A stretch of 64,000 nucleotides of DNA from Thermoanaerobaculia bacterium (GCA_963816185.1 CAWFJJ010000029.1:96001-160000), one strand, 5' to 3'. Positions 5,707-33,242 are shown, numbered from the stretch's first letter. Made by a program: numbers and translations. Notes: generated by a model not told the origin, from the letters alone.

Positions 5707-5719
5707 GGCTGGTGCCTCC

Positions 5720-7243
5720 TCAGATCTGAATCAGAGCCGCTTCGGCGGCTTGCGCCGCCTCGCGGACTTCGCGTGCGGGGGTTTTTTGCCGGCGTGCGGC
5801 CTGCCGGGCAAGGTCGCGCGCCGCCGCGCCCGCGATCTCGATGGCCTTCTCGAGGTCGGAGGCGGACCCGCGCGCCACGGAGATCCGGATCGCCGCCACG
5901 TCCGACTGATCGGCCATGAAATCCGCGCCTTGAGAGACCAGGACGCCCTTCTCGCGCGCCGCTCCGGCGAGAGCGCGGCCCGACACGCCGGGGGGAAGCT
6001 CCGCCCAGAGCACGTATCCCCCGGAGGGCCGATCGACGCGCGTCCCGATCGGAAACCGGTTCACGAGCGTGCGATGTGCGAGCGCGAGGCGATGTTTCAG
6101 GCGGCTCCGCATCTTCGCGAGATGCCGGTCGTAGTCGCCCCGGACGAGAAAGAGGTTCAACGCGGCCTGCAGGACCGGCGGGGACGTCAGCTCTCCGACG
6201 CGCTTGAGCGCCGCGAGCCGATGGACGAATTCCTTCGGCCCCGAGATCCACCCGACCCTGACGCCCGGGAAGAGCGCCTTGGAGATCGTGCCGAGGTGGA
6301 CCACGTGCGCCGGCGCGAGCGCCGCGAGCGGCTGCGGCAGCGCGCCTTCGACGAGGAGGTCGGCGTCGAACGCGTCCTCGACGAGAAGGACGCCCTCCGC
6401 CGCCGCGCGCTCGGCGATCTCCGCGCGGCGGGCGGGAGAAAAGAGAAGGCCCGTGGGATTCTGAAAATCCGGACTCGTGTAGGCGAACTTCGGTCTCTCG
6501 AGGAGCGCGCGCTCGAACGCTTTGAGCGCGAGACCGGCCCCGTCCAGCGGCACGCCGACGAGCCGCGCCCGGTGCGCGCGGAAGAGGGAAAGCGCCCCCG
6601 CATACGACGGGATCTCGACGACGACCGGGTCGCCCGGATCGACCAGCGCGCGCGTGATGAGGTCCAGCCCCTGCTGTGCCCCGTTCACGATGAGGAGCGC
6701 ATCCGGGTCGGCCGGGATGCCGCGCTTGGCGAGGCGCTCGGCGAGCGTCTCGCGGAGCGGCCGGTAGCCGAACGGCGAGCCGTACGCGAGGAGTGAGCCG
6801 TCGCGCGCCACGTCGGCGAGAAGCGCCGCGAAGGCCGCCGCCGGGAAGTCCCGCTCGTCCGGCGCGAGGCGCGAAAGGTCGTAGGGTACCGAAACCGGCT
6901 CCGTGGCCGGAGGCTCGGAGAGGATGCGGGTCAGGAGGGACGACGCGATGCGGTCCCATGCGGGCGCCGGGCCGAGCACGGGAAAAGCGCTGGAGCGGCG
7001 CGCGACTCGCGTTCCCCCGCCCTTGTTCGTCTCGATCCAACCCTCGCGCTTGAGGATCTGCAGGGCCTGGTGCACGGTCGCCCGATTCACTTCAAGCGCC
7101 CGCGCCAGGTCGCGCGACGCCGGCAGGCGCTCCCCTTCGAGGTGCCGGCCACGGCGGATGTCGCGGATGATGGCGTCCGCGATCGTCCGGTAGAGCGGCA
7201 CGCGTACGGGCGCGGCGGCGGAGTCGGGCGGGTTCCTCACCAT
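5720..7243 (-). CDS. MocR/GabR-family regulator (GntR wHTH + PLP-binding aminotransferase domain), PdxR-like
   Basis: [10 protein letters not shown]...VNRATV w[22 protein letters not shown] with PLP lysine; directly upstream of pdxS; start chosen at ATG 7243. Confidence 0.85.
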
Positions 7244-31816: not shown

Positions 31817-32224
31817 TTGGACGCGCGGCTCACGTTGACCGTCGTCACGCCGGAGCGCGCGCTGCTCCAAGGCGCTGCATGCGACGAGGTCACGCTGCCG
31901 GCGTGGCGCGGCGAGCTCGGCGTCCTGCCGGGCCACACGCCTTTGATCGCGCTTCTGGGAATCGGCGTCGTCGCGTATCGAGACGGCGCCCGGCGCGCGA
32001 TGCTCGCCGTCCGTAGCGGCTTCGTGGAAATCGCCGCCGACGCGGTGCGGATCCTGGCCGACGAGGCGGCGGCGCCGGATGGCATCGACGAGGCGAAGGC
32101 CTCGGCGGAAAAGGCGGACGCGGAGAAGAGGCGCGAGCGCGCCGCCGGAGACGAGGAGTTGGACGCCGCGAACGCGGACGCCCGATTTGCGGAAGCGCGC
32201 CTCGCCGTCCTCCGGTCTGCGTGA
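31817..32224 (+). CDS. atpC: F0F1 ATP synthase subunit epsilon
   Basis: VVTPER, GELGVLPGHTP, GFVEI; TTG start inferred. Confidence 0.93.
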   Translation: MDARLTLTVVTPERALLQGAACDEVTLPAWRGELGVLPGHTPLIALLGIGVVAYRDGARRAMLAVRSGFVEIAADAVRILADEAAAPDGIDEAKASAEKADAEKRRERAAGDEELDAANADARFAEARLAVLRSA

Positions 32225-32292
32225 CGCCGGCAACCGCGCGGGGAAGAGCGAAAAGGGCCGACCAATGACGTCCCCCCGGGGGGCCGAACGCC

Positions 32293-32309
32293 TCGGCATG
32301 AGGCTTGCG
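32293..32309 (+). promoter_or_regulatory. Putative sigma54 (-24/-12) promoter
   Basis: TCGGCATGAGGCTTGCG: GG 32295-6, 10 nt, GC 32307-8, with TTGC and GGCA context. Confidence 0.6.
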
Positions 32310-32319
32310 AAGGGTATGC

Positions 32320-32412
32320 GTAGGCTCGGTGGGCGCCGAAAGGGCGCGCCGGGTGACACGAACACCTCCTGCCTCCTACCGGGGCTCCGCTCTTGCGGAG
32401 CCCTCTTTTTTT
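32320..32412 (+). ncRNA. Candidate small regulatory RNA with two anti-SD motifs
   Basis: 5' hairpin 32325-32353, linker with CCTCCT at 32365-70 and 32372-77, terminator hairpin plus T7; 5' end inferred from the promoter. Confidence 0.55.
32382..32412 (+). terminator. Rho-independent terminator
   Basis: GGGCTCCGC-TCTT-GCGGAGCCC then TCTTTTTTT. Confidence 0.9.
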
Positions 32413-32453
32413 ACCCCCTATCATCGTTCCTCGATGACGGCGAGGGTGGTGCC

Positions 32454-33242
32454 ATGACGCTCGAGCGCGATCCCTGGACCGCCCAGTGGTTCGGGGAGGA
32501 GTACCTCGCCTTCTATCCTGAGCGGGACGAGCGCGAGGCGCGCCGGAAGGCCGTCTTCGCGCGCGAGCTTCTCGCGCCGTTTGCCCGCGTCGGCTCGCTG
32601 CGATTCCTGGACCTCGCCTGCGGGACGGGCCGGCACGCCGTCGCGCTCCACGATGGCCACGGAGGGGTTGTGGGCCTCGACCTGCCGGAGCGCCTGCTTT
32701 TCCAGGCCCGACGGCGAACGGGGCCTCTGCGCCCGTTCTGGGTGCGGGCCGACATGCGTCAGATTCCTTTCCTCACGGGCACGTTCGGCGCCGCCGTGAA
32801 CTTCTTCACGTCGTTCGGCTCTTTCGAGGATTCCTTGGACGACGCTCGCGTCGCGCGCGAGGTGGCGCGGGTCCTCGCGCCGGGAGGAGCGTTCCTGTCG
32901 GACGTCTTCAACGCCGAGCGCGTCGTCTCGACGCTCGCGGTGCGCGAGGTGAAAACGGTGGCTGGCGAGCGCGTGAGCATCCGCCGACGGTACGATCCAT
33001 CGAGCCGGCGCGTGGAGAAGGAGATCGAGGTGGGCTCGGGAGAGAACAAGCGCGTGTTCACGGAGCGTGCCCGGGCGTACACCGAGCACGAGCTCCGGAA
33101 CTTCCACCGCGCAGCAGGCCTCACGGTGCGTGCTGCTTACGGGAATTTCGACGGGTCGCCGTTCGACCGACGGAAGTCGCCGCGTCTGATTCTCCTTGCC
33201 GTGAAACCCACGGCAAAAGCCCGCGTTCAGAAGGAACCATGA
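32454..33242 (+). CDS. Class I SAM-dependent methyltransferase, candidate bacillithiol N-methyltransferase
   Basis: LDLACGTGRH, ADMR, NFFTSFG, LAPGG; stop overlaps bshC start. Confidence 0.8.
   Translation: MTLERDPWTAQWFGEEYLAFYPERDEREARRKAVFARELLAPFARVGSLRFLDLACGTGRHAVALHDGHGGVVGLDLPERLLFQARRRTGPLRPFWVRADMRQIPFLTGTFGAAVNFFTSFGSFEDSLDDARVAREVARVLAPGGAFLSDVFNAERVVSTLAVREVKTVAGERVSIRRRYDPSSRRVEKEIEVGSGENKRVFTERARAYTEHELRNFHRAAGLTVRAAYGNFDGSPFDRRKSPRLILLAVKPTAKARVQKEP

Follow-up and report, generated by a model that had tools for sequence, protein, structure and literature searches.

Positions 32293 to 32412 of the stretch of DNA analysed here, the window of 64,000 nt (GCA_963816185.1 CAWFJJ010000029.1:96001-160000, whose own numbering is used throughout) from an uncultured Thermoanaerobaculia metagenome-assembled genome (MAG), appear to hold a self-contained small RNA (sRNA) gene, which is predicted to depend on sigma-54, to end in an intrinsic terminator and to carry a copy of the anti-Shine-Dalgarno (anti-SD) sequence as its seed. 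We put the probability of this reading at roughly 0.65. The element, referred to as type A, has a shorter paralog, type B, elsewhere in the source genome (G000), and it probably belongs to an undescribed RNA family, which as sampled is confined to one family of the Thermoanaerobaculia. It is found in a spacer of 229 nt between the atpC stop (32224) and the operon of a methyltransferase gene with the bacillithiol genes bshC, bshB1 and bshA (ATG at 32454), and it is made up of the following parts.

32293 to 32309, plus strand: putative sigma-54-type promoter TCGGCATGAGGCTTGCG, with the GG of the -24 element at 32295-6, the GC of the -12 element at 32307-8 and 10 nt between them (from the sequence and its conservation).
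32310 to 32320, plus strand: variable spacer from the -12 element to the predicted start at about 32320-32322, a non-conserved stretch after which conservation resumes at AGGCCCGG.
32321 to 32412, plus strand: predicted sRNA of type A, about 90 nt (covariance model R1, folding z-score).
32326 to 32352, plus strand: 5' hairpin with the invariant core GCGCCGAAAGGGCGC (consensus fold).
32353 to 32380, plus strand: seed linker, unpaired in the consensus, with CACCUCCU at 32363-70 and CCUCCU at 32372-77 (consensus fold, comparison with 16S rRNA).
32381 to 32412, plus strand: intrinsic terminator, with a stem-loop at 32381-32404 (10 pairs, 8 of them G-C) and T7 at 32406-32412 (terminator scan).

The case for the element goes beyond chance because it is conserved in relatives; the promoter box alone would be insufficient. 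In a DNA search the spacer was recovered from 12 of the 24 other genomes sampled in the genus and from none of 16 genomes of two sister families, and R1, the covariance model of the RNA part, gave 17 matches (101.7-113.5 bits) in 16 of 29 genus genomes, which hold type A at 81-90% identity. The conserved core in these relatives extends from 32265 to 32410, and the spacer outside this unit does not align. The box of the type A copies can be written GGCA-Y-G-N-GG-Y-TTGCG, where GGCA, the next G, GG and TTGCG are the same in every one of the 17 copies and the inner positions vary (Y, G/A/C), and it is followed by a non-conserved spacer of 13 nt (13 of 17 copies) or 14 nt (the other four) up to the point where the copies again agree. 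That point lies where the start of a sigma-54 promoter, some 12 nt past the -12 GC, is to be expected. A GG and a GC that never change, freely changing bases between them and behind them, and a return of conservation at a fixed distance make up the signature of a -24/-12 promoter with its predicted transcript, and this signature is repeated in two paralogs and 64 copies, the GG and the GC being invariant in all 17 copies of type A and all 47 aligned copies of type B. In the source genome the promoters of the two types are furthermore near-identical (GGCATGaGGCtTGCGAAG versus GGCATGcGGCgTGCGAAG).

The part of the element that would be transcribed is equally regular. RNA from 32320 to 32411 folds better than its shuffles (z -3.46), and the 17 copies all keep the box, hairpin, CCUCCU block and terminator while the spacer varies, as a stand-alone, sigma-54-driven riboregulator of about 90 nt, proposed earlier from the sequence by itself (the sequence-only reading), would have it; the existence of a paralog behind unrelated genes supports the same proposal. 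Several details of that reading are borne out directly, namely the -24/-12 element with its N10, the two CCTCCT motifs (32365-70 and 32372-77), the strong terminator with T7 and a C6G6 palindrome at 32272-32283, and its GC-rich hairpin at 32325-32353 is likewise there, with bounds that the consensus fold draws in by one position on either side. The linker is largely unpaired in the consensus fold, save for four unsupported long-range pairs, and the end of the seed block, CCTCCTACC, is invariant in 17 of 17 copies. The 3' end of the 16S rRNA of the source genome is GGATCACCTCCTTTCT, and the type A seed is identical to this tail over 8 nt; the anti-SD copies consist of CACCUCCU followed by CCUCCU in type A and of CCUCCUU in type B. 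The stem of the type A terminator is invariant in the 17 copies and its loop variable. A coding reading, in which the element would be an extension of the methyltransferase gene, was rejected: the frame is open in the window (open reading frame, ORF, 32079-33242), but in 9 of 13 genomes a stop is found in the element or the intergenic region, and the element is therefore taken to be non-coding. A search of Rfam 15 gave no match at gathering level in the intergenic region and none in five type B loci, which agrees with the sequence-only reading, where it was not recognized as a described family, and at E values up to 10 only sub-threshold rows appeared, namely ncr982 (25.0 bits against a gathering threshold of 50), tfoR on the wrong strand (19.6 against 70) and mmgR (18.2 against 41).

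Type B was met as a set of weaker R1 matches (26-41 bits) in 11 genus genomes without type A, at loci that are not near atpC, and it has a simple layout.

Type B, general layout: palindrome GCGCCGWTTCGGCGC, box GGCTGGCACGGAGCGTGCGATAG, about 12 variable nt, GCGCACWTCCAACCTCCTGCC, terminator and T-run.

The box has the sigma-54 spacing and -24 half, with GTGC in place of TTGC at -12, and the expected RNA of about 50 nt lacks a 5' hairpin and would have GCGCAC near its 5' end, then a CU-rich seed. The distance from the -12 C to GCGCAC is 12-15 nt with a mode of 13 (43 of 47 copies fitted by the pattern, the other four having ACGCAC). A model of type B (R2) finds it in all 29 genus genomes, the source genome included, and within the order in 59 of 62 genomes of the family (10 genera) and in 0 of 7 genomes of a third family. 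The model R3, rebuilt from 47 type B copies and applied to 151 genomes sampled across the class, found the element in 15 of 16 genomes of the family; it gave one weak match among 17 sister-family genomes and nothing in 117 genomes from 15 further families outside the order. In the alignment of the 47 copies CTGGCA and TGC are invariant throughout and the 4-5 nt between them vary, and the terminator helix is 97.3% paired; at three of its pairs both partners have changed, in one case with G-C giving way to A-U in 16 sequences. Weak R2 matches in the sister family f2 (11 of 81 genomes) showed no -24/-12 box when read and were not counted as members. In this sister family, the loci designated L113, L114 and L119 (g2) and L115, L116 and L121 (g4) are terminator-ended and have CU-rich anti-SD stretches in the absence of a -24/-12 box; of the two kinds of element seen there, one has AACACACCUGAUCUCCUCCUC and the other consists of tandem hairpins with GCGCUGGA loops followed by CCUCCAUCCUCC, and these may be separate sRNA families under other promoters.

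In the genus, type B is mostly found directly behind rng, the RNase G gene (TIGR00757, 487 bits); elsewhere it is found beside a divergent gene in three loci and, in other genera, behind other genes. The gene downstream of it is convergent in at least five loci (G000, G009, G012, G019 and G061, by crude ORF calls), and since its neighbours are so varied and the downstream gene is convergent in these loci, type B cannot be the leader of a downstream gene. Type B is taken to sit ancestrally just downstream of the RNase G gene and to be kept throughout one Thermoanaerobaculia family. Its seeds vary by clade (CCAACCUCCUGCC, CUCCUCCUCC, CCAGCCUCUCCUCCC). The source genome (5.09 Mb, 30 contigs, 67% G+C) contains three copies of the cassette with different seeds, type A and the following two.

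C29:348714-348819, minus strand, outside the window: type B of the source genome (L098), with palindrome GCGCCTTTTCGGC, box GCTGGCATGCGGCGTGCGA, GCGCACUCUCCUCCUUC and terminator (R2, 43 bits).
C2:12416-12522, plus strand: third cassette (L142/L143), with palindrome AGCCACTTTGGCT, box GGCACGAGGAATGCT, GCGCAC, seed GUUCUAAUG and terminator (R3, 40.9 bits).

The former lies directly behind the RNase G gene and before a convergent Lon-like gene. The latter has no DNA match in 62 other genomes of the family and adds no comparative support; its contig C2 is 20.9 kb long and of lower G+C (64%). Two type B copies are also found in some other genomes, as in G006 (L045/L077 and L057/L101), where one lies beside a divergent gene instead of rng, and among second R2 matches L127 (G069) has a sigma-54 box and GCGCAC while L130 (G096) is without a clear box. 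These cases suggest repeated copying of the cassette. In type B loci of the genus (e.g. L072 at 1614-1645) a conserved CCTAGACTCC was furthermore observed 6-8 nt before the GTG of a downstream gene for a transporter of the MFS type, with no SD, and this looks like the -10 box of a leaderless mRNA.

The two types recognize each other across their models, R1 finding type B at the scores given above and R2 finding type A at 24.5-30.9 bits. In genomes without type A the type B seed is GCACATCCAACCTCCTGCC, and the type A seed of G008, GCATCCAACCTCCTACC, comes near to it. Furthermore, the invariant core of the type A hairpin is, at 14 of 15 positions, the reverse complement of the palindrome GCGCCGTTTCGGCGC found upstream of the type B promoter. 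All 17 copies of type A have atpD-atpC upstream, and downstream they have the methyltransferase gene in 13 cases and bshC directly in three, one locus being cut off; the operon is fixed and in the same orientation. In five of five genus genomes examined that lack type A, the spacer between atpC and the methyltransferase gene is about 50 nt and has CCTATCATC before the SD and start codon, and the same motif follows right behind the type A T-run in a subgroup that includes the window. Because the motif of the short spacers is retained behind the type A terminator, type A is read as an insertion of about 170 nt upstream of the apparent -10 box of the operon. It looks like a lineage-specific and recent duplicate of the older, shorter type B, in which the palindrome would now lie inside the transcript.

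A more ambitious picture can be drawn, although we hold it only tentatively and consider it rather doubtful as a whole. In it the palindrome, the -24/-12 box, the short seed and the terminator would form a modular sigma-54 cassette, which this bacterial family would duplicate and re-arm with new seeds; the palindrome would be the close-range docking site of one dedicated enhancer-binding protein, and in type A, where it is inside the transcribed region, it would double as the 5' hairpin of the RNA, so that the RNAs would be anti-SD mimics answering to a single signal as one regulon, linked by ancestry to RNase G. The only conserved palindrome, of the type GCGCCG-N3-CGGCGC, precedes the -24 box of type B by about 10 nt and is found at about +14 to +28 in type A. 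Palindromes of this type are common in the source genome (46 strand-wise matches), and the 14 loose co-occurrences of such a palindrome with other sigma-54-like boxes of the genome are uninformative. One further site, at C1:591844 on the plus strand, has a sigma-54-like box GGCACGGCTCATGCT with a palindrome TGCCGGTTCGGCA 13 nt upstream, a layout like that of type B with no terminator after it, and the site possibly belongs to the same regulon as an additional promoter.

The proteins that an RNA gene of the proposed kind would call for are encoded in the source genome. The rpoN gene expected by the sequence-only reading was found (PF04552, 214.9 bits), the sigma-54 activator domain PF00158 has 43 matches, of which about 31 are above 160 bits (over 30 enhancer-binding proteins), and hfq is present (PF17209, 61.7 bits against a cut-off of 27). 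TGGCAYG-N4-KTGC sites were also seen before other starts of the genome that have an SD and an ATG. sRNAs that act by pairing with ribosome-binding sites (RBS) are built in this way, with an unpaired anti-SD copy before a terminator with a U-tail, in hosts that have Hfq. We infer transcription from the promoter, the 5' end, the base-pairing and the targets, and the course of events would be that an enhancer-binding protein activates the promoter upon some signal, that the RNA starts near 32320-32322 and is ended at the intrinsic terminator as a product of about 90 nt, and that this RNA, probably assisted by Hfq, uses its seed to base-pair with a group of mRNAs at ribosome-binding sites of the GGAGG type, so that these mRNAs are translated less or become less stable. 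The bacillithiol operon might receive some read-through.

Two observations on the spacer between promoter and transcript may be added here. The spacer at 32310-32320 and the matching spacers of the 47 type B copies are 74% purine, as compared with 41% in 16 other sigma-54-like promoters of the genome. The spacer could pair with the CU-rich seed, but the idea that it acts as an anti-seed was rejected, as its pairing energy is equal to that of its own shuffles (-9.9 against -9.1 kcal/mol), and only its purine-rich composition is unusual.

A number of findings weigh against a sigma-54-dependent, RBS-pairing sRNA and should be set out together. The box reads cGGCAtG-AGGC-TTGCg, and its -24 element is CGGCAT and not the TGGCAC of the TGGCAC-N5-TTGCW-like sigma-54 pattern; GGCAYG-N5-TGC occurs once in the window against 0.8 expected and has at least one match in 58 of 100 shuffles, and the looser pattern GGYAY-N5-NTGC has 324 matches in the genome. 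Taken alone, the box is at chance level and not significant. Sigma-54 enhancer sites are usually located 80-150 nt upstream, and an enhancer site at the usual distance was not identified, nor could any one activator be assigned. Covariation of the hairpin, to which the sequence-only reading had looked for support, did not appear: the pairs of the 5' hairpin are kept, but with no compensatory changes, and there are none among the 24 pairs of the consensus fold. The minimum free energy fold of the single sequence moreover pairs part of the seed. As to targets, the seeds of both types were folded as duplexes with 21,723 candidate starts, taken from 3,736 crude, GC3-based ORFs of the source genome, and the energies formed a continuum without an outlier. 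There are 120 perfect matches of at least 10 nt in the genome, a few of them before plausible starts, a number at or below chance by a rough estimate from composition for which no control was run, and GGCAGGAGGT occurs 26-43 times per genome in five relatives as compared with 25-40 times for its reversed control. The sequence-only reading had pointed out that TGCCTCCT is complementary to the pdxS RBS region (5713-5720), and this 8-nt match to the RBS of a minus-strand gene is present, but it is generic, since any strong SD would give it.

The expression data speak neither for nor against an independent 5' end near 32320. A run index pointed to eight metatranscriptome runs, each with 4-6% of the sampled words, of which four were examined, three recorded as RNA and one that is probably DNA. 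Their data are assembled contigs of relatives at a depth of 3-6, which show neither ends nor strand nor level, may include carried-over DNA and are uninformative where they leave parts uncovered. The RNA-library contig X2 extends from about 32323 to 32499, beginning near the predicted start and reading through the terminator; the promoter is included in contigs X4 and X1, the latter from the run that is probably DNA; and contig X8 bridges atpC to the methyltransferase gene across the spacer. The end of X2 near 32323 is a weak hint of a start there.

The surroundings of the element have to be described before the alternatives can be weighed.

31817 to 32224, plus strand: atpC, ATP synthase epsilon subunit, the upstream neighbour and outside the element (NCBIfam TIGR01216, 95.9 bits against a cut-off of 67).
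32265 to 32285, plus strand: conserved upstream block, ATGACGTC followed by the GC-rich palindrome with C6G6 at 32272-32283; conservation in relatives starts here.
32419 to 32424, plus strand: TATCAT within CCCTATCATC, outside the sRNA, a motif kept in genomes without the element.
32454 to 33242, plus strand: gene of a methyltransferase dependent on S-adenosylmethionine, first of the bshC-bshB1-bshA operon and the downstream neighbour (generic family matches, all below cut-offs).

The stop codon of atpC is TGA at 32222-32224, and the element begins about 70 nt beyond it. The upstream block could be a 3' hairpin of the atp operon or a protein-binding site; its palindrome has one compensatory change by eye (TCTCC/GGAGA in G011) and mismatches in several copies. 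TATCAT is likely the -10 box of a promoter belonging to the downstream operon itself, to judge from its retention. The identification of the bacillithiol genes rests on NCBIfam models, BshB1 (258.1 bits) and BshA (516.9 bits) being above their curated cut-offs and BshC (240.7 bits) below its own of 265.8, and the relatives of the methyltransferase are MAGs labelled Thermoanaerobaculia or Acidobacteriota. ATGACG occurs both at 32265-32270, the upstream edge of the conserved unit, and at 32454-32459, the methyltransferase start; the two occurrences share a frame and are separated by 189 nt, and the repeat may be a trace of the duplication or insertion that made type A, or chance.

The alternative that survives best, unlikely as we consider it, is that the element is a cis-acting leader, in which the sigma-54 promoter drives the bacillithiol operon and the hairpin, seed and terminator form an attenuator for methyltransferase-bshCBA. 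The notion stems from the facts that all 17 type A copies lie upstream of this operon in the same direction, that contig X2, from an RNA library, runs from about 32323 through the terminator to 32499, and that in G015 the T-run directly abuts the methyltransferase ATG, so that a further promoter or SD would have no space; because of this last arrangement a partial role in cis is kept alive. However, the paralog of the same design has a convergent downstream gene in at least five genomes and varied neighbours in other genera, and the bacillithiol operon has a promoter-like signal of its own, CCTATCATC, which is present in the spacers of about 50 nt that lack the element and retained downstream of type A. 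In addition, no conserved alternative pairing of the antiterminator kind was seen on inspection of the type A alignment, and a terminator of 10 bp with 8 G-C pairs and T7 looks constitutive.

Somewhat less probable still is that the element has no promoter of its own and is the 3' untranslated region (UTR) of the atp operon, being either its terminator region or the source of a processed, 3' UTR-derived RNA. Its position 70 nt behind the atpC stop would fit such an origin, as would two RNA-library contigs, X4 with the promoter region and X8 with a connection from atpC to the methyltransferase gene, and the GC palindrome at 32272-83, being without a T-run, may not stop atp transcription. A mere 3' UTR is nonetheless argued against, because throughout the family a paralog that shares its promoter and has a CU-rich seed is found behind unrelated genes: the same box is found before copies behind rng, behind other genes and beside divergent genes. 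An invariant -24 GG and -12 GC amid variable positions, followed by a variable gap of 13 nt, is furthermore the pattern of a promoter and not of an RNA structure, and the contigs are of low depth and possibly derived from DNA. Finally, it is improbable that the RNA, made as proposed, is a decoy that titrates a CU-binding protein or competes with 16S rRNA for SD-like sequences, for although the seed is a generic anti-SD copy for which no specific target stands out, and although neither the seed nor the 5' GCGCAC changes from genus to genus, as is also the case for RNAs that bind proteins, there are just one or two motifs per RNA where known sponges carry many, and the seeds differ among paralogs and clades (CCAACCUCCUGCC, CUCCUCCUCC and CCAGCCUCUCCUCCC, with GUUCUAAUG in the third copy), which fits target-specific pairing better.

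Read as a sigma-54-dependent sRNA gene, the element may be compared with several known systems. Vibrio Qrr sRNAs are described as depending on sigma-54 together with LuxO (PMC10162802; 10.1101/2021.07.01.450815), NfeR1/alpha-r14 as an alphaproteobacterial anti-SD sRNA (10.1101/2025.11.14.688489), and GlmY/GlmZ, CrcZ/CrcY, NrsZ and an RpoN-dependent sRNA of Campylobacter jejuni as further sigma-54-dependent sRNAs (PMC3045617, PMC6292655, PMC4253122, PMC11187230). In a full-text literature search that covered listings and the openings of abstracts, no regulatory RNA was found described for Thermoanaerobaculia or Acidobacteriota, and no sigma-54 anti-SD sRNA of such a kind. The element resembles the Qrr sRNAs in that both are short RNAs with a -24/-12 promoter and an intrinsic terminator, occur as several paralogs per genome in a host that has Hfq, have a seed block that is invariant across species, and have one copy beside a fixed neighbour gene. 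However, no Qrr match was obtained at E values up to 10, the phylum differs, the seed is an anti-SD copy here, and the only conserved palindrome stands some 10 nt away from the -24 box in type B and within the transcript in type A, and not at the usual 80-150 nt upstream.

The other comparisons concern the seed and the promoter separately. The cuckoo/CcsR and AbcR families have CCUCC(U)CC motifs, which are located in hairpin loops. Like these families and NfeR1/alpha-r14, the RNA has an unpaired, CU-rich CCUCC(U)CC stretch which mimics the 3' end of 16S rRNA and is thought to mask the RBS. It gives no Rfam match to any of them, bears its motifs in a linear linker and not in hairpin loops, has a sigma-54 promoter and belongs to Acidobacteriota; the likeness to cuckoo and AbcR sRNAs drawn in the sequence-only reading is thus one of design, and it does not extend to membership, as neither family appears even at E values up to 10. 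Bacillus ncr982 (RF02454) and mmgR/suhB (RF00519) likewise have CCUCCU or CUCCCU directly before a GC-rich terminator with a U-run, but with 25.0 bits against a gathering threshold of 50 and 18.2 against 41 the match covers just the generic part formed by seed and terminator. With GlmY/GlmZ, CrcZ/CrcY, NrsZ and the C. jejuni sRNA the element would share the control of an sRNA gene by a -24/-12 promoter together with an enhancer-binding protein, whereas those RNAs are larger or differently built, e.g. as protein decoys or processed forms, and no similarity to them was detected.

Thermoanaerobaculia and other Acidobacteriota are common in soils and sediments and mostly uncultured. For these bacteria the family would provide a testable handle on post-transcriptional control and on the output of a very large repertoire of sigma-54 activators, and one that can be traced in metatranscriptomes; the handle rests on an invariant promoter, a start predicted to within a few nt, a short seed and a strong terminator. 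The mechanism is already known in kind, so the novelty would lie in the RNA family and in a clean evolutionary example and not in the principle. That example may be the birth of an sRNA gene, which type A appears to illustrate as a copy of a cassette dropped into a 50-nt spacer between two housekeeping operons.

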